64,000 nucleotides of DNA from Vermamoeba vermiformis. Lineage: Eukaryota. The notes below the pieces were generated by a model. The model searched no databases, was not told where the DNA came from, and saw only the letters and a list, made by a program, of their open reading frames with translations. This document shows, piece by piece, positions 33,055-56,728 of this stretch. The position numbers and the translations under genes are program-made. The stretch covers positions 124,001-188,000 of the forward strand of contig JBEWZL010000270.1 of the NCBI GenBank assembly GCA_045837725.1. The letters are read 5' to 3'. How positions within the stretch are numbered: the first letter of the stretch is position 1; each line of letters begins with the position of its first letter.

Positions 33055-36000
33055 ATGCGTGAAATCATCTTATTTCTTGCCTTGTGCACAGGTAAATGTC
33101 AAATAATACGACAATAATTACTGGAATAATATAACAAAAAATATTAAATTTAGGCTTCATTGTTTTGTCCTGCGCAAGTGCAGATGCGTTTCAAACTTTG
33201 AACGCAGCAACTGTTGTGAACACAAATGAAGATACATTTATCGATAGTGCAGTTCAAGACGAAGACTTCCTTTACTACGTCACTTTATTTAGTCCTGTCA
33301 AGGTTGGCAAGCTCAACAAAACGCAACTCGCGACGCCTGGATGGAATGGAGCTTCTGTCTCCCAACTAAATGTTTCCAGTGCAGATACAGTAGCATTTAG
33401 TTTGTTGTATAAGGATAGCAATTCGATCTTTTTGCAAGGACAATCAACAACGTATCTACTCTCTTCCACGAATCTAGCTCTTTTGAACACCCGCGTTGGC
33501 GAGGAGATAAACTCATTGACTGGATTTATTAGCGAAGATAGCAATGGTATCTCGGTTGTTAACTTATTTGGCTATGCAGTGCAAAGGGCCCTTCAGATTC
33601 GGCTTGACGATCCATCAATGAACGACACCGCCGTTTTCGACATCCCTTTCACTGACACCCAGGCGTCATCATATTATCACCCGAATGACATTGCTATATT
33701 GGCCGATTTCTCCTCGACATATGCCGTTTACAAGTGGAGCACAAAAGATTTGCTTTTAACTTTCAAGATTCGAGATCAGTCCACTGGATTTATTGTGTAT
33801 GATGGCGCAACAAACGTTCTTTATACATGCGGAGATCGCCCGTCCGGCGAATTTGCCGTATTGACGCGAGTAAACCTATCCAACATCCAAAACAACACCG
33901 AGATCTCCGTTTCCATCAGCGTAAGCACGTGCGAAAGAATGTAAATTGTAATTAACCATTTATAACATAGCTCGACAGTCCTTATTATTCTTCTGAAGCG
34001 GTTATTGCGCAAGCGATTGGTGAAGAATTCTTCGCGTCAACTTGCAGAGGATTGGCTTTACATCCAAGCGGACAACTCCTGTACGCCCTCTATGACCCTC
34101 CTTCATCATCTGGACAAATAGGACGGTACGTTTTACTGCATTGTATGATTGTTTTGGAAGCTTATAACTTTGTCTCAGAGCTATCGCATCCACACTAGAC
34201 ACTGTCGAAACAACGTCCGTGGACGCAAACGTCTCTCAAAAAACTATGAGCCTTCTACTTGAGGCTGATCAGCCCCTGATTTATGTATTCACCGAGACTG
34301 ATGTTGCAGTCGTCAAATTTCCGAGTAAGAACTCCTCGAAAGAATAATCCCTCAAACTAACCATCATGTTTAGCCACCTATGATTGCCCACGTGACTGTT
34401 CAAACCACGGATATTGTAATTCAACGACGAAATATCTTTGTGTTTGCGATGATCCCTATTTTGGTCACAACTGCGGTACGTACTAGATTTGGATCCTGCA
34501 TTCGGCTGACAATTTTTTATTCATCAGAGAAACCTACTCCAATTGGACCAATTCCTCCAGTAGCGCAGCCGCTATATGAGCCTATAAGACTACTAGGACA
34601 ATCAGATATCAATCCAAATATCGGATCTGTTGCCGACGACGAATATATTTACTACTTTACCAACTGCTCGATAAGAATAGGCAAAGTCCGAAAAGCGGAT
34701 ATAATCTCAAGTACGAAAACTCCGTCAGTTTTCACTGAAACTGTCGTCGAAGATTTTGGCGTTGCTATTTCGCTGATTGACACGCAACTTGGATTGATTT
34801 ACTTCATTGGTGAAACTAACTGCCAAAGTAATTGGGACCCGAATCATCAAGCTAAGCTAATTAGAGTTTCAACGAGCAACTTTACGGATCACACCGTCAT
34901 GGATCTGTCAAAGGGCATCACCACAGCGTTCGTTAGCAATGATACACAAGGCTCAACCTACCTTAATATGTTTGGATGGCCAAATTATTTGCGCTTAAAG
35001 TCATCTAAGAGCGATAACCCGTTACAATCATTTCCAACCTTGCGGGCAGATGCAGCGCCGATCGCATCCACATTTTTGCCCCAAAAAAACACCGCCATTA
35101 TCGTTACCGAATATCCTACTTTGCACTACAACTTCAACACTGGCAATATTACTCATTCGTATACCCTTCCTAGTGACTTTACAGCAAAGTCTTTGGCGGC
35201 TGACGAAGAGCGCGGCAAACTGTATATCGTCGGAACAACTTCTACGGTAAAATTTTAACCATGAAATGTAACTACGAGCCGGTTACTAATAATTTTGCGT
35301 TATTATAGGATAATTGGTACTTGTTAGTTTTGACGCCCGAATTGCTTCCATATGGCACAAAGCTTACTATGGTAATGAAATATTACTTACGACTAACGTA
35401 CTAGTACGTTAGAAAGTTTTTTTAACTTGTTTTCATAGAACGGATCTGATTACTTAGAAGCGATTTTTATAAGCACTGGTTATTGGATCTCGCCTGTTGG
35501 GCTATTTTTGGACCTTGAAGCAGGTCAAGCTATAATAGGGCTAAACCAAAAGATTATTAGGTAATATTTATTTTTCGCGGATCGCGATGCTCGATCTGTT
35601 CCACATCGTTGTCTTTCATTTAATATTAACGTTTATTACAGATTAAATCTTTTGACGCACGAAGTATTTGATACTGCCGATTTGTACTATCAGTATGGCT
35701 TATCTCTTTGGGGTGCTCACTATCATTATGAAGTTGACACCAGAACACTGTTCATCACTGGATCTAACGGTACTCAAGCAGTTGCAGTTGCTTTTTACAT
35801 CCCAAGTAAGAACCTCTCAATTAATCATATCTAATATTATTGACACGAAATAACGTTGTTTAGTGCCGTGTCCTCGAAACTGCAGTAGCAATGGTCAATG
35901 TATGTATGGTGCTTGTCAATGCGACGACGGGTTCACTGGCGAGCAGTGCGATGAAAGTACGTCAAGCGCAAATTTTTAACCTATTATTAGAATAAGAATA

Positions 36001-49812: not shown

Positions 49813-50584
49813 ATGGCTCAAAAGGCAACTTTCATCGTGGCTGTCGTGGTTGTTCGAGACAATAAGATCTTGTTGATCCAAGAGGCCAAAGAATCTTGCA
49901 AAGGTCTTTGGTATTTACCTGGTAAGCATATCACGTAATATAATTATTTAAGGAATTATTCGAATTTTTGGGACACGTCTTTAATTGTTCAATTTGCAAA
50001 TCCGTTCTAACTTTAATTCTTTTGCAAAATTCCAGCTGGAAGAATGGAAAGTGGCGAGACTATAATAGCAGCAGCCAAAAGAGAAATGAAAGAAGAGGCT
50101 GGCTACGAAATTGACGTAAGAAAATTTCGCTATTATTCAGGTCTTTGATCCGCTGAAATTTCTAACCAATTTTTTAGGTCGCTGGTGTATTCCATGTCGA
50201 ACATATAAGCTACGGAGGAGTAAGATCGAAGAATACACAATTTTTCGAATTTTTAGCTAAATTTCTTTTTTTCAGCCTTCGTGGATTCGCTTTGGCATTG
50301 CCGCAAACATTACTGGCGGAGAATTAAAGACAGTTCCTGATAAGGAAAGTCTACGCGCTGATTGGTTCCCGTTGGAGGACCTCAAGAACGGCAAGATCCC
50401 GCTTCGTACAAACGACTTTGTGCCTCTCGTCTTCAACATCTTCTTAAAGAACAAGTATATTATCCCTATCAACTTCTTCGTAGACAAAACTGACGCATTT
50501 GCACAACAAAACAATTACTTCCAGCTCGAGAACGGTGGATCGAATAAGACTACCGACGAAAAGTTATTGGACAATGTAAATTAA
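49813..50584 (+). CDS. Nudix hydrolase (NUDT18-like / ADP-ribose pyrophosphatase-like)
   Basis: ILLIQEAKESCKGLWYLP/AGRMESGETIIAAAKREMKEEAGY is a complete Nudix box (GX5EX7REUXEEXGU); WIRF...GGELK..PDKESL.A.WF. Confidence 0.9.
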
Positions 50585-50743
50585 TGTTAATATGTTATTA
50601 TGTTATAGTAGTATTATAAACGAATGTTTAATAAGGCTTCAATCGCTCATTACGTATCATTAATAAGACCGAAAATTAGTACTTTGTTCTAGATCCGCTT
50701 ATTGGTGTTAAACTTTGCATTTAATTCCGAGAACAGAATAAAA

Positions 50744-53700
50744 TTAATACTCTTCACCATAATAATCATCGTGTTCCTCATCATAGCCATCGTATCCTTC
50801 ATAAACTTCAGCGCCTCCACCCGCATCTTTGTTGTAAATCAAGGTCATTTTTGGCGGTGCTGCTTTTCCTGGGCCTTTGCCACCAAAATGCACGATATAC
50901 GTAGGCAAGATTTGATCCATATTAAATATAACCTGTTACACAAAGATAAATTAGCACCACATCCAAAACGCGATCCGCTCGAGCGAAGTTGATCCTGATT
51001 TTGATATAGGTAAACTTACAATCTCGGAGCCATCAGGTGACGAATGACTATGATATCCTGGTTTTAATTTGCAGCCGAGTTGAACTTTTGGCATTTTGAA
51101 TGTGTTTCCAACCAACACTTGGCACAACAAAAACCGAGCACCACCAGCATAACTCATTGAAACGGCCGGTAATTCTGAGAAGTCTAGGCAAGCATTAGAC
51201 ACCCATTGCACTATCATAGTGATCTTACATATTCCTGCGCCGTAGTAGCCTTGGTCAGTGCGAGATCCAACGTGATCCAAACTGAAATTGTTTTCAATAA
51301 TATTCGATATATTTTCCGGGCTCGTGCCATGAAAGCATAATATAGGTTTAGTTTCTATCGATAATAATATTAATAAGAGTAGTTATGCAGCAGGTTTTTC
51401 AGATCTGGTACTTACGTTCCCAATCGATTTCTTGTGCCATTTCCAGCCTTCTCTTTTGAAATTTCGCTATTAACTTCGGATTGACAACGTATTCGACTTT
51501 AGTAACTTTAGAATGACTGCCTTCCATCAGGCGATAGAATTGACTTTCGGCCATCCTACGAACGCAAGTCATTTTAGCCAAGTCATTTCATAGCGGCATT
51601 TACGTGAATTTATATAATACTATAATAAACCTTTGTTTAAAGATGTAACAGAAAGTGAAATAAAACGATAAAAAAAAAATAATCAAGTCGGATCCGATCC
51701 GCAGATCAACGAAATAATTCGATAAGCACATTATTGCTATATTATGTATATGATTGTTTTTGTTTACCTGAAGTGGATCGTGGATGCGTCGTTTTCGAAC
51801 CGAGTTGAAGGATACAAGGAGAATATTTTGGTCTTATTGCCCTTCAACGCTTCTTTCTCGCCCGGCAAATACAATTTGGCCTCTTCTTCCGCATCAAGGT
51901 GTTTCTTATTTGAGCCTACTAGTCGCTCCGCTTCTTCTTTTTCTTTCATCAGAATTTTAATGATTTCTTGTTGCGCTTTTGTGTCTTCTTCCGCCCTAAT
52001 TAGCAAGCATTAATGATCATTTTCAATGAGTATTCGTAAGTGTGCTGATGACACGTGTCACGTCAATGACGGTTCCACTGAATTTTTTTTACGTTCGAAG
52101 TTTCGATGTGACACGTGTCATCAAAAGTGTCATTATTGTAAAGGTGATTGAAACGTACCTTTGTTTGTCTCGTTTGTACCGTTCCAATTCTTCGTATAAT
52201 TTTACAATGTCTTCATCTTTCTTCTCGAGAGGTTTGTCAGCTCCGTTCAAGTTGTTGTTCGCATTCGAGTCTTCTTTCACGTCAATATTTACAATGGTTT
52301 TATCGCCCGACTTGCTAATAGCCTTCTTATTGTCATTCTTATCCACCTTATCACTATTTACATTACTATTGTTATCGCTGTCATTCACTTTTTCTTTCGC
52401 GGCGTCGTCGTTTTGTTCTTGTTGATGACTGGCTGGCCAAAAAATCGTTAAATCACGTGACTATAATTCATGAAATAACATACCAGTCAAAAGATATTCA
52501 AGTGCTTGTTCAATATTATTGGCTGCTTTAGTCAAAGCAATTTTGATTTGCCGTTCAGTCACGTCAGGTAAAATTCCTTTGATCGTCGAAATCTGTTACC
52601 AAATTTAGTCAAAATATTTCCTTATTTGGCAATGAATGCATGATACGTACGTGATTGGCCTCTTCATTGTCCAATTTCATTTTCTTGGCTTTTTGTTCTG
52701 ACTCGGCTTCTTCCAATTTTCGTTTTTTGCTTTGCGGAGAATTAGAATCCGATTCTTTAATCTCCGCTGTATTTTTATCTTCTTGATTAATTTTTGCCTT
52801 TTCATTTTCATCTTGAAGAACTGTTGGCTGGCGTTTAGCTTTGGCCGCGTTATTATTTTTGAGTTCAATTTCGGGTTCGCTGTGTTCGGGTGTTTTGGGC
52901 TCTTCAATTTCACTCACGTCCATTTTACCGGTCTCAACGAGCATGTATCCGTGAAGACCTTGAGACCTACGTTAATAACCATAATAGTTGGAAGGCTATA
53001 ACATACCTGGTAAGAATTGAATCGTGTCGTCAAGTAGCAGCGGAACAATTTTTCCTTTAGTCAATTTAAATTCTTCACCGGTCTCTTTACGAATAATTTT
53101 CGAAGCATTACTGCCGATCTAAAAGAGTTTTTGTTAGTATTTCCTTTTTAGGCAATGACCAAACTTCAGACTTACGAGCTTCACATTGACTCGATTCTTT
53201 TCGTTTGTCTTATGGATCTCTAAATGCTGTCTGCTTAATCGATTGTCTTCAATGCCTGTCAGTCCTCCTCGGCCCAGAATAATCGGCAAATTGTTCATGA
53301 AATTCAACGGGATCGGTGCTCCTTCTCCAACTGGAATCAGTCCGAAGTATTGTTCGTTTGACATCTCCGTTTTCTTATCGCTATTTTTAGCATCGTTTTT
53401 AGCGCTTGAAGGCTTGTTACTATTGGCATTCGCGTCTGATTTTTTGTCGTCGGGCTGTTCTTCCAGATCCGGATCTCCGTTTTTTGCTTTGACGAGTTTA
53501 GTAGGCGCGTTTTGCAATAGTTTTTCTTTCAAATCGAGCATAATCATTGGATGTAAAAATCCAGGTCGTTTTCTATTGCCTTTAGTCTCGCAGTCCATTA
53601 GCATCTGAACGAACTGCCCTGGAATACTTTTGAATCCACAAGCTGCACCAATCATTCCGCCGACAATACATGCATTCGTATCTGTATCACCACCTGCTGC

Positions 53701-55214
53701 TATTGTTTCTTTTATAGCTACCTCGTACTTCGTTCCATGGTACAAATGTCTGAGAAAAATAATCACGTTAACCAAGCGCATTACAAACTCAAAGAAAAAA
53801 TTGCATAAATTTGACAATAATAATTTCAAAGCGGTTCAATTTCGATGAAATATCATCTGTGCTGAAAATAAGTATGCCAAAGTGTCATACCTGAATGCGT
53901 GACTAAAGCCAATCTTGACCCAGCCGTGCTTGTCTTTGGGCATGGAAGAACATTCTCTTCCTTCTTTAGCCTCCTCAAGCCAATCAACGACATCACTCGC
54001 CGCGTGTTCTTTGGCCCAATTATACGCCACTTCAAATGCGCCTTTTCGGTCATTTGGTTTGTTCATCAAGTGTGCTATAGCGAGCACGTAACATGCGCAG
54101 CAGTGAGTACAAATTGGGTGTGGATGACTCAGCGCACTTTCTTGTTGCGCGATCATTGCCAAGTCGTCAACCGACAACTGTGAAAAAATGAAGATATTTT
54201 TAGATACGCAGCAGAAAAAACGAGTAAATTATTATTGATAATAGAGCGTACCTTATGACCCCAAACAGCCAATGGCGTCATGCGCATCAAACTGCCGTTC
54301 GATTGTGATTTTGTGCAGGCACGACTGGCTCTCAGCGTCATTCCCGCTCCCAACCTTCGGACAAAATAAAGTTAATTCTCCGATCAATCGCAATTTTTGG
54401 CACTATATTGAACAGATACTAGATTTCAATTGGTTGCAAAAGATGCTCGGAGCGGATCCGAAAGAAAAAGTTCTCTTCCGTAGCTTGTCTTACCCTTTTT
54501 CTTCGATCACAACTTGCAATGCGGGGTCCTCAAAGCACGAAAAAGCAGCAATTGTAGTCTCGCCGCAATCAAATGGCTTTGAAGCCAGCCACCTGATGTA
54601 CGATTTGGCTATCTTGTCCGTGTCAAAATCTGTGCTCTCGGCCAACGCACTCGCCAGTGACTAAATATGGTAATTAATTAATTAATATTATTAATGGTAT
54701 TCATATATGATATTAACGTACTATTGTAAGCTCGCCGTCATCGGTAATTTGACCCGCAGATAATTTCCAATAGCCGCCGCCTTTCATCTGTGACAATAAT
54801 ATGATTAATTTTATTATGATTAGTTTTCGTTAAATATAAATATGTTATTAATACGCACTTCAAGGGCTCTTTCGACTTCATCTTTCTTTGGCTTGTGGCC
54901 TGCAAAAAAAAAATCGTTTCAGCGCCAAACTCAGAATGAACATCACTTAAAATACGTGGACCACGATCGCAAAATTAAAGTAAAAAGGGTAATCCATATT
55001 ACTTAGTAACAGACAGCTGATTTAATTAAATTAAATCGTCTTGCAGGAAATTTTAAAACGTTGAAAATGAAAATTATGGATCAATATTTAGCCAAAAATT
55101 ATAATACATTAATGGAGTATTTTTACCTAAAAATTCCAGGTAAGATCCGATCGAATCTCCAATTAGCGCGCCAAAAATTGCTCCAAGAGCCACATCATCT
55201 TTTTTGTCACTCAT
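50744..55214 (-). CDS. ADP-ribosylglycohydrolase - FHA - UBA-like - PARP-like ADP-ribosyltransferase fusion protein
   Basis: ARH motifs GALIGDSIG, GQITDD, SNGSLMR, SHP and GGDTDT; FHA IILGRG...IEDNRLSRQH; UBA-like IKIALTKAANNIEQALEYLL; ART motifs CFHGT, YYGAGIYFSE, SMSY, LLCQVLVG, DGSEI/VIFNMDQILPTYIV. Traced through canonical introns without finding a stop. Confidence 0.8.
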
Positions 55215-55782
55215 TGGCTCAACTCCTCGTGAAAATCACGAAAAGTATCGAGTTGTGGTTCTTCTTCGAAATTTAGATGCGAAATGGATCTTGCGCGTGC
55301 CACAAGCTCGATTATTTTTGACGCGCAGTATCCAGCTACACAACACACCTTATATTTCAGACTATAATAAGGCGCATGATAAATTTAGGGTTGATAGTCG
55401 ACTAAAGTCGTAAAGACCACGAGATCCTACACCGTTTTGCAAGTATGTAACTATAAGCCTTAAAAAAATCGGATTAATGCTGTCAATTTATTTATCGTTC
55501 ATATCGAGCTTATTGGAACGAAAACTCTTCGTGGAGACGAATTAAAATTAATTCTCAACGTTTTGTTTCGCAAGCTTAATAATAACATTTTAATGTGCTG
55601 CCTGTTAATTAATGCAGTAAATTTGGTAAATTATTTATCTAGCTGTCTCGTAAAAACATTTTTGCAATGTGAATCTTTACGGAGCACTCGTTACCGCGCG
55701 TAACAATGTAATTGCGATATCTTATAACTAACGATTTTTTCTATCGAATATTCTAGAAAATTGAATTAATAAGAAGCAACAA

Positions 55783-56728
55783 ATGGAAGGAGCTGGGCCG
55801 TTACCAATTATACGGATCATTGCCTTATTGACCTTTCCTATCTCTCGCTTGATCTGCTTTATACTACTGCGAGTGAAAACTAAAAATAAGAAGGCATTTT
55901 CTGCACGAGCACCAAAGTAAGTGGTTAATCATGCTTCTAGAAGGCTCATCTGGATCGAAGCTAATTTTTTTTTGCTTCATAAATTATCAAATAATTAAAT
56001 AATAATATTTAGGGATATAATTTTAATGGTGCTACGAATATTATTCGTTGCCGCTGCAATTACCGTCGCTATTCTTTCATTTGCAATTGCGGACCAGATG
56101 TTATGGACTCAAATCATTGTAGATCAGGTACTTTTGATGCTCTTAGGCATTAATGGCGAGTACTAATATTATTTCATGTTTTCAGACCAGTACTATTGTT
56201 ATGCTTTCAATTGGTTTTGCAATTATCGTGTTGGCTGATATTTTAATTCTCGTGTCCGGCTTCAAACTGGCAAAATCAGCTAAAAACAAAGAAATGACCG
56301 TAAGTACTAATATATTTTATACAATATTCTAATAAAACGCCAGTTTTAAGCCAAATTTCTGTATCGGATCTAACATTTTTTTGTAGTTGGTCACCAAGGG
56401 TCCATATCGCTTAATGCGCCATCCAATGCACGGTGCATTTTTTGTATTTATTGTTGGAGCATTCATCGTGCGATTGAATTGGTTTTTCGACCTGTTAATG
56501 CTCGTCAGCTGGGCGATCGGTTTGCTCGAATTGCCTAAAGAAGAAGAGTCGCTTGTTTCATGGTACGGCGAGGCATATATTCAATATAAAAAGAAAACTG
56601 GAGCACTTTTGCCGTGCCCTGTCCTCGATTGCGGAGTTTCAAAGGAAAATGCAGAGTGGATCGCAGAAAATCGTGTTGATACTCAAGTTGGATTACTTCC
56701 CTCGATGACAGAGCTTGAGGATGATTAA
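55783..56728 (+). CDS. Isoprenylcysteine carboxyl methyltransferase / PEMT-family membrane protein
   Basis: Hydrophobic N-terminal exons; LVTKGPYRLMRHPMH; EEESLVSWYGEAYIQYKKKT. Confidence 0.85.

Follow-up and report, generated by a model that had tools for sequence, protein, structure and literature searches.

The closest described design is that of PARP14, which holds writer, reader and eraser of ADP-ribose in one chain, its eraser being a macrodomain, and which sets a precedent for self-reversal (PMC10499325; this and the other articles are cited from those parts of their text that were accessible). Among the hydrolases of the other fold, ARH3 reverses the serine marks of PARP1 during DNA repair (PMC10499325), and the tested bacterial DraG-like enzymes, DraG and Tri1, cleave arginine-ADP-ribose (PMC8120803). 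FHA domains of the PNKP/APLF type bind XRCC1 and XRCC4, and Dictyostelium APL, which has the same FHA type, joins it to ADP-ribose-binding domains and DNA damage and is enriched on chromatin after cisplatin (PMC5087659). Here we report that a minus-strand gene of Vermamoeba vermiformis, at 50744-55214 of an analysed stretch of 64,000 nucleotides (the window; contig C270, 124001-188000), fuses a DraG-like ADP-ribosylglycohydrolase (ARH) to a PARP-type ADP-ribosyltransferase (ART) by way of an FHA and a CUE/UBA-type domain. The fusion is real, expressed, and rare yet conserved, and the gene almost certainly encodes one polypeptide.

The protein shares with PARP14 the assembly of transferase, reader and hydrolase in one polypeptide, with the hydrolase N-terminal and the ART C-terminal. 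However, the eraser of PARP14 is a macrodomain working on Glu-ADP-ribose and nucleic-acid ends, whereas in our protein this part is an ARH, an unrelated all-helical fold with a binuclear metal site; the readers are RRM, KH and WWE domains in PARP14 but FHA and CUE here; and the ART described here keeps the catalytic Glu, which the PARP14 ART is not known to have. By analogy the protein may work like PARP14, but with no macrodomain it is not a member of the macro-PARPs (PARP9/14/15). DraG (Rhodospirillum, Azospirillum) and Tri1 (Serratia) resemble the hydrolase part, in which E27/D59-D60/D96 correspond to E28/D60/D97 of DraG; they are, however, stand-alone bacterial proteins with separately encoded R-S-E transferases, whereas the present protein joins its ARH to an H-Y-E PARP, comes from a eukaryote, where the nitrogenase role of DraG is inapplicable, and does not keep the adenine motif ExxA of DraG. 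Human ARH3 and ARH1 have the same fold and the TDD/DxDT metal ligands, but they stand alone and lack the DraG-specific Asp present here, and the ARH3-type sequence match is weak. PNKP, APLF, aprataxin and APL share the FHA subtype, but they contain neither ART nor ARH and carry the FHA at the N-terminus, while here it is internal, behind the ARH. PARP1/2/3-clade proteins and tankyrase differ by their WGR/regulatory or ankyrin/SAM domains, none of which occurs here. The design is a known one, that of PARP14; the eraser has a different, unrelated fold, and the PARP and ARH subfamilies are uncharacterised.

The window comes from an intron-rich eukaryote, and the gene is single-copy in the genome that we searched (43.3 Mb in 309 contigs). 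Our model has 16 exons and encodes 991 amino acids with a lone stop at the end; its 15 introns are all GT-AG, measure 45-227 nt and, in the case of introns 4 and 8, use AAG as acceptor. Along the chain follow ARH, FHA, a basic motif resembling a nuclear localisation signal, CUE/UBA, a coiled coil and PARP, at these positions:

50744..55214, minus strand: whole gene (gene model; RNA joints at 12 of 15 introns; colinear with the 999-aa protein P0001)
55214-55127, 54899-54859, 54787-54722, 54660-54494, 54354-54252, 54177-53891, 53749-53176, 53118-53007, minus strand: coding exons 1-8 (gene model)
52958-52651, 52592-52484, 52432-52159, 51995-51768, 51555-51416, 51354-51229, 51183-51020, 50932-50744, minus strand: coding exons 9-16 (gene model)
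53497..55214, minus strand: ARH (ADP-ribosylglycohydrolase), DraG-like, aa 1-335 (Pfam PF03747, PDB matches, residue conservation)
55160-55146, 54745-54737 and 53688-53677, minus strand: ARH motifs GDSIG, TDD and DTDT (gene model)
52933..53349, minus strand: FHA domain of PNKP/APLF/aprataxin type with GR, SR and GxN, aa 385-488 (Pfam FHA_2, PDB matches)
52714..52728, minus strand: KKRKL basic motif, aa 557-561, candidate nuclear localisation signal (sequence)
52484..52662, minus strand: CUE/UBA-type three-helix bundle, aa ~579-619 (Pfam CUE; 100% identical in P0001)
51875..52217, minus strand: coiled coil, aa ~691-750 (helix 690-754 in an otherwise poor full-length model; 92% identical in P0001)
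50882..51871, minus strand: PARP/ARTD catalytic domain, aa ~752-946 (Pfam PF00644, AlphaFold2, Foldseek)
51331-51329, intron 14 and 51025-51023, minus strand: catalytic triad of H841 (in HGT, 51331-51323), Y875, whose codon is split by intron 14, and E928 (gene model)
50744..50881, minus strand: Gly/Tyr/acidic low-complexity tail (sequence; 46% identical in P0001)

Alignment of four sequence runs to the gene gave RNA joints for 12 of the 15 introns (1-3 and 7-15), whose boundaries equal those of the model either directly or when the listed letter substitutions are allowed for. Since the end of the ARH and the start of the FHA share exon 7, the joints found at all nine introns between this exon and the PARP end connect ARH to PARP. 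No joint among those listed fell at introns 4-6, where depth was low, and two joints were not displayed. The raw-read runs X5 and X7 were mostly less than 90% alike to the gene and therefore belong to a relative. The contigs X1 and X2, which for the most part are 95-99% alike to the gene, skip the introns, their RNA origin being a guess, and no single record covers the whole gene. A search with the PARP piece found P0001, a protein of 999 aa carrying ARH, FHA_2 and PARP, with which the model is colinear and 84% identical, with no gap at any exon junction. The 15 members of its cluster comprise four full-length 999-aa open frames on contigs of 3101-4529 nt, which we infer from protein records and contig sizes to be spliced transcripts, and 11 pieces of 33-207 aa, six of them on contigs longer than 400 kb. 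Identity to P0001 is 91% in the ARH, 90% in the FHA, 100% in the CUE, 92% in the coiled coil and 87% in the PARP, as against 45%, 81% and 59% for linkers 1 to 3 and 46% for the tail; because the two enzymes stand at 91% and 87% while two variable linkers and the tail reach 45-59%, these values fit selection on both enzymes. The sole AATAAA in 50500-55300 sits within intron 2. A full-length AlphaFold2 model from a four-row alignment had a pLDDT of 44 and a pTM of 0.30 and was not used for claims on fold or domain contacts, and the ESM Atlas, queried with the whole protein, returned nothing usable.

When Pfam was run on 14 exon-sized pieces of the window, ADP_ribosyl_GH matched six pieces in profile order, two of them over the cut-off (35.9 and 41.9 bits), and in P0001 the match reached 168.7 bits and covered profile positions 1-285 of 287 (PF03747). 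The key residues are D20, E27, T58-D59-D60, D96 (54570-54568), N140, H173 and D272-T-D274-T275; among 130 aligned homologues the flap glutamate E27 and the metal-site residues T58, D59, D60, D272, D274 and T275 are each kept in 117-126, and N140 and H173 are also conserved. The best PDB matches were DraG (3g9d/2woc, E 6e-20 and 2e-19), followed by archaeal and bacterial ARHs and Tri1, and the ARH3-type structure 6g1p matched weakly (E 4e-4). D96, an Asp in 127 of the 130 homologues, aligns with Asp97 of DraG (compared through 2WOE, which we take to be the D97N variant of DraG). In DraG this Asp97 is crucial, and neither ARH1 nor ARH3 has it (PMC7050489). The adenine-binding ExxA motif of DraG (Glu121) is replaced by T-K-S-Q (TxxQ) before SNG, and therefore the specificity of DraG cannot simply be transferred. 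Judged by these residues and matches, the ARH belongs to a DraG-related subfamily and is neither of ARH3 nor of ARH1 type, and it is probably enzymatically active. The same ARH subfamily occurs in other fusions, namely with a dual-specificity phosphatase (P0039), an inositol monophosphatase (P0139), a rhodanese (P0099) and PF09409 (P0123), which we take to be the PUB domain. Two intronless ARH loci of the genome (L002 and L003, on C77 and C81) are near-identical, through recent duplication or as unmerged haplotypes.

At the other end of the chain, the PARP match in the window ran across exons 14-15 and scored 24.0 bits against a cut-off of 26.7, the piece containing a 15-codon intron, while in P0001 it scored 55.8 bits against the same cut-off. 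The YYGAGIYFS and EIVIF motifs each cross an intron. AlphaFold2 modelled the P0001 PARP domain with a pLDDT of 90.3, and Foldseek aligned it to tankyrase (E 2e-14, TM 0.73). Among solved structures, tankyrase and PARP10/12/13 come nearest to it, with 20-26% identity, and profile search places PARP13, PARP12, tankyrase and PARP10 closest. The ESM Atlas, queried with the PARP part, returned generic PARP clusters only, and among the Pfam matches of P0001 there was no WGR, regulatory, ankyrin or SAM domain, nor was a Macro match found by Pfam in P0001 or in P0019, a second fusion protein that we describe below. An N-terminal motif of the domain, HFRxAESQFYRL, defines a subfamily whose catalytic domains are 42-67% identical (21 rows aligned) and in whose alignment the H of the H-Y-E triad is invariant and the Y and E are kept in at least 90%. 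Its named members, from the genera Cavostelium, Phalansterium, Pelomyxa, Polysphondylium, Cantina, Ploeotia, Mytilus and Candidula, include amoebozoans and molluscs as well as one euglenid and one stramenopile, the nearest being the amoebozoans Cavostelium, Phalansterium and Pelomyxa; no human member was among the subfamily matches found. Sister proteins of the subfamily bear PBZ, BRCT, WWE, SAP, macrodomains, RRM/KH or a ZNFX1 helicase, so this PARP type is repeatedly paired with ADP-ribose-recognising and DNA-repair modules. Cavostelium P0003 shares the FHA-CUE-coiled coil-PARP core of our protein. None of these members has an ARH, and PBZ, BRCT, WWE, SAP or macro domains occur in its place. 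A profile search of the genome for HPF1 (PF10228) gave no match, but it had no positive control, hence we draw no inference from it. Three other proteins, P0173, P0107 and P0142, combine macrodomains with the same PARP subfamily, possibly a second writer-eraser pairing; the Mytilus member of this set is annotated as PARP14-like, yet it keeps the catalytic Glu. P0171, of 2070 aa, has a ZNFX1-type helicase and two tandem PARP domains, the second of the HFRxAESQFYRL subfamily.

Between the two enzymes, the FHA matched FHA_2 (PF17913) with 34.2 bits in the window and 47.0 in P0001 (cut-off 23.1), and all eight PDB matches of this piece were to PNKP, APLF or aprataxin, at weak E-values of 0.02-0.6. 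Its LGRG/SRQH lie at 53277-53224, in the same exon as DTDT. The residues G409-R410, S422-R423 and N445 (alignment numbering), presumably the phosphothreonine-binding positions, are invariant in all four rows, and the FHA is conserved in P0019, P0172 and P0003. The CUE match of the window lies in exon 10. A basic cluster between FHA and CUE recurs in all five homologues compared (P0001, P0019, P0175, P0172, P0003), from which we infer that the basic motif could act as a nuclear signal. Genes for XRCC1 and XRCC4 are both present in the genome. The two XRCC4 loci (L050 and L051, on C221 and C200) are near-identical, again through recent duplication or as unmerged haplotypes. A further PNKP-type FHA is found in L049 (C209, ~146000-148700, minus strand), where it precedes two tandem protein kinase domains, as judged by eye.

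These results bear out the observations of an earlier note made from the letters of this DNA and support its interpretation in part. Its single spliced minus-strand frame is borne out by the 991-aa model, the RNA joints and P0001; the ARH with intact metal-binding motifs, by the PF03747 match and by ligands conserved across the 130 homologues; the PNKP/aprataxin/APLF-type FHA sharing the DTDT exon, by the FHA_2 score and the eight PDB matches; and the PARP-type domain with HGT, Tyr and Glu, by a complete H-Y-E triad. The TDD, DTDT, HGT and Glu that it had located stand at the same positions in the model. It had also suggested a check for a single transcript, in favour of which the joints at nine of nine introns from the ARH/FHA exon through PARP speak, and profile searches for ADP_ribosyl_GH, FHA, UBA and PARP, in which Pfam matched ARH, FHA_2, CUE and PARP. 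The UBA-like helical bundle that it had described is present, but its best profile is CUE instead of UBA.

Fusions of this kind were sought with unfiltered phmmer among 1.84 billion representatives, giving 7865 matches. The best 150 of them included ARH in 135 and PARP in 16, and both in a single one, P0019. Because a two-domain protein scores additively, close fusions should rank among the best 150, but these are not exhaustive, since P0001 and P0175 are missing from them. P0019 (835 aa, on contigs of up to 58.7 kb) has ARH, FHA, CUE and PARP in a single frame (150.7, 18.9, 22.0 and 44.1 Pfam bits, respectively), and P0175 (845 aa, on a 33-kb contig), 53% identical to it, runs in a single frame from ARH through the HGT motif; their identity to P0001 is 33-38%, and the gene call of each misses the first ARH helix and stops short of the catalytic Glu, presumably at introns. 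P0106/P0172 (253- and 146-kb contigs) carry ARH and FHA and end at the apparent start of the CUE. In a JGI metagenome scan, where most loci were short (1-9 kb) and the P0019 and P0106 contigs were not included, ARH occurred at none of 16 PARP-subfamily loci; no PARP or FHA match lay near any of the nine further ARH loci of the genome, and 58 pattern matches in viral contigs contained no relative. No supported clade united the fused ARHs or the fused PARPs (none of 200 bootstrap trees, both for the PARPs and in the second ARH tree), and one origin of the fused ARHs was not rejected (p-AU 0.42); the first ARH tree omitted four near-identical rows, the PARP tree seven redundant ones, and the second ARH tree was built from 37 of 128 rows picked from the first. 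As far as the sequences tell, the fusion is rare, yet it is kept in distant lineages.

In the literature searched, the titles and abstracts of the articles retrieved by full-text search did not describe an ARH-PARP fusion, although relevant information may stand in the architecture figures and the supplement of PMC4245714, and none appeared in the accessible text of PMC2964712, PMC8120803, PMC9503650, PMC12412787 and PMC10789625. The partner domains of ARH given in PMC4245714 are zf-RanBP, zf-UBP, WD40 and macro, with most other eukaryotic ARHs carrying no extra domain, and the portion of its text seen does not mention 'FHA' or 'CUE'. The statement of the earlier note that the architecture is not known from characterised proteins thus holds for the pairing of ARH and PARP, which we did not find described, but not for the idea of writer plus eraser, which is known from PARP14.

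We tentatively favour, without quite calling it probable, the reading that the protein is a nuclear, DNA-damage-targeted enzyme whose ARH reverses the mark of its own PARP, making ADP-ribosylation self-limiting. The basic motif would direct nuclear import, the FHA would bind a phosphothreonine and so dock on a repair scaffold of the XRCC1/XRCC4 type that CK2 has phosphorylated, and the CUE would bind ubiquitin on nearby chromatin or partners. There the H-Y-E PARP, devoid of both WGR and helical regulatory domains, would ADP-ribosylate itself and co-recruited proteins, probably with single units or short chains, and the tethered binuclear-metal ARH would strip the same modification, resulting in a brief local pulse, as macrodomain 1 does in PARP14. 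The ARH would supplement an FHA-CUE-PARP core of which ARH-free examples exist. The DNA-damage context, taken by itself, is probable because of the PNKP/APLF/aprataxin-type FHA, the PBZ, BRCT, WWE and SAP domains of sister PARPs, and the presence of XRCC1 and XRCC4 in the genome; the last two points lend indirect support to the repair targeting that the earlier note had put forward.

Several observations weigh against this self-limiting enzyme. The ARH bears the DraG-specific Asp, and DraG and Tri1 are arginine-ADP-ribose cleavers, whereas the acceptors described for PARPs are Glu/Asp, Ser, Cys or nucleic-acid ends (PMC10499325, PMC4245714, PMC10789625). Since arginine-ADP-ribose is not a known main PARP product, reversal of the protein's own mark has to be read with caution, and this is the chief reservation about the self-contained switch that the earlier note had inferred. 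Moreover, either catalytic domain could serve other partners, because the genome has ~10 ARH and more than 15 PARP loci. Orthologues without ARH exist, namely P0003 of Cavostelium apophysatum (FHA-CUE-coiled coil-PARP), which its source calls complete, and L021, where, as in L024, the FHA comes after a likely start and no ARH was detected; the PARP therefore does not need the ARH. The gene calls of P0019 and P0175 do not reach as far as the catalytic Glu. The CUE scores are marginal around the cut-off of 21.1 bits: 21.7 in the window, 17.2 in P0001, 22.0 in P0003, 22.0 in P0019 and 14.1 in P0175. Finally, a scan of the three plus frames of XRCC1 and the two XRCC4 loci found no FHA-binding motif of the strict Y/F-x-x-S/T-T-D/E or acidic STDE type, although acidic S/T clusters do occur there.

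The question of substrate leads to an alternative that we consider unlikely, in which the protein edits marks: the ARH would take off ADP-ribose set by a different writer, whether linked to arginine or remaining as the final unit of another PARP's product, and the PARP would write its own mark at the same site. The DraG-type Asp96, the arginine-specific nearest solved relatives DraG and Tri1, and the many further PARP loci of the genome are all in keeping with such editing, but the change from ExxA to TxxQ means that DraG specificity does not simply carry over. A genome profile search for the arginine-specific writer ARTC (PF01129) gave no match; it, too, had no positive control, and no inference is drawn.

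A role in counter-defence, with the ARH clearing arginine marks set by bacterial or viral transferases on host proteins and the PARP writing marks in an immune role, as the antiviral clade-3 PARPs do, appears less likely still. Bacterial stand-alone ARH systems have been proposed to counter foreign ADP-ribosylation (PMC9503650), the profile search puts the PARP domain nearest to PARP13, PARP12, tankyrase and PARP10, and members of its subfamily occur with macrodomains, RRM/KH or ZNFX1 helicase. However, the PNKP-type FHA, the basic motif and the PBZ, BRCT or SAP of most sisters point to DNA repair, and a single copy with highly conserved catalytic domains is unlike fast-evolving defence genes.

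We give slightly less weight again to an ARH that chiefly binds ADP-ribose or clears O-acetyl-ADP-ribose, in place of the PBZ, WWE or macro readers of the subfamily. The ARH-bearing proteins have none of these readers, which the subfamily otherwise repeatedly has, and ARH enzymes can act on O-acetyl-ADP-ribose (PMC8120803, PMC9503650), but all metal ligands and the catalytic acids E27 and D96 are kept, which would be needless in a pure reader. That two or more adjacent genes were merged by the gene model alone is highly improbable and already largely refuted, as the unjoined introns 4-6, the lack of a record over the whole gene and the diverged origin of the raw reads are outweighed by the exon common to ARH end and FHA, the nine of nine joints downstream, the four 999-aa frames, the single ARH-to-PARP frames of P0019 and P0175, and an AATAAA confined to intron 2.

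If the self-limiting enzyme is the right reading, writer and eraser would have been combined twice, in PARP14 and here with a hydrolase of unrelated fold, and own-mark reversal would imply that a DraG-like ARH acts on a new substrate (Glu/Asp-, Ser- or DNA-phosphate-linked ADP-ribose) or that a PARP writes on arginine. It would likewise open a first way into a PARP subfamily of pan-eukaryotic spread, of which we found no characterised member in this analysis. The fusion bears on the substrates of the DraG-like ARHs of microbial eukaryotes and on the source of intracellular arginine ADP-ribosylation. As a conserved natural fusion it is a candidate writer-eraser pair within one construct, with the ARH-less orthologues (Cavostelium) as a built-in natural comparison, and each outcome would be informative, whether it reveals that the ARH has a new specificity, that the PARP modifies arginine or that the protein edits marks.

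In the window the fusion gene lies between two plus-strand genes. At 49813-50584, tail-to-tail with it, is a gene for a NUDT18-like Nudix hydrolase (PDB 3gg6, E 7e-6 and 3e-4), whose last exon had the deepest coverage in the raw-read runs and whose proximity to the fusion gene is probably coincidental. Head-to-head with the fusion gene, at ~55360-56728, is a PEMT/ICMT-family methyltransferase gene; the loose end of X1 at 55442 corresponds to sequence around 55755, which suggests that a leader is spliced and that a short promoter is shared. Elsewhere in the genome, a small-subunit rRNA of 1.5 kb occurs twice on C309, the copies being oppositely oriented (33071-34564 and 55063-56556), an arrangement like that of an organelle inverted repeat or a bacterial associate.

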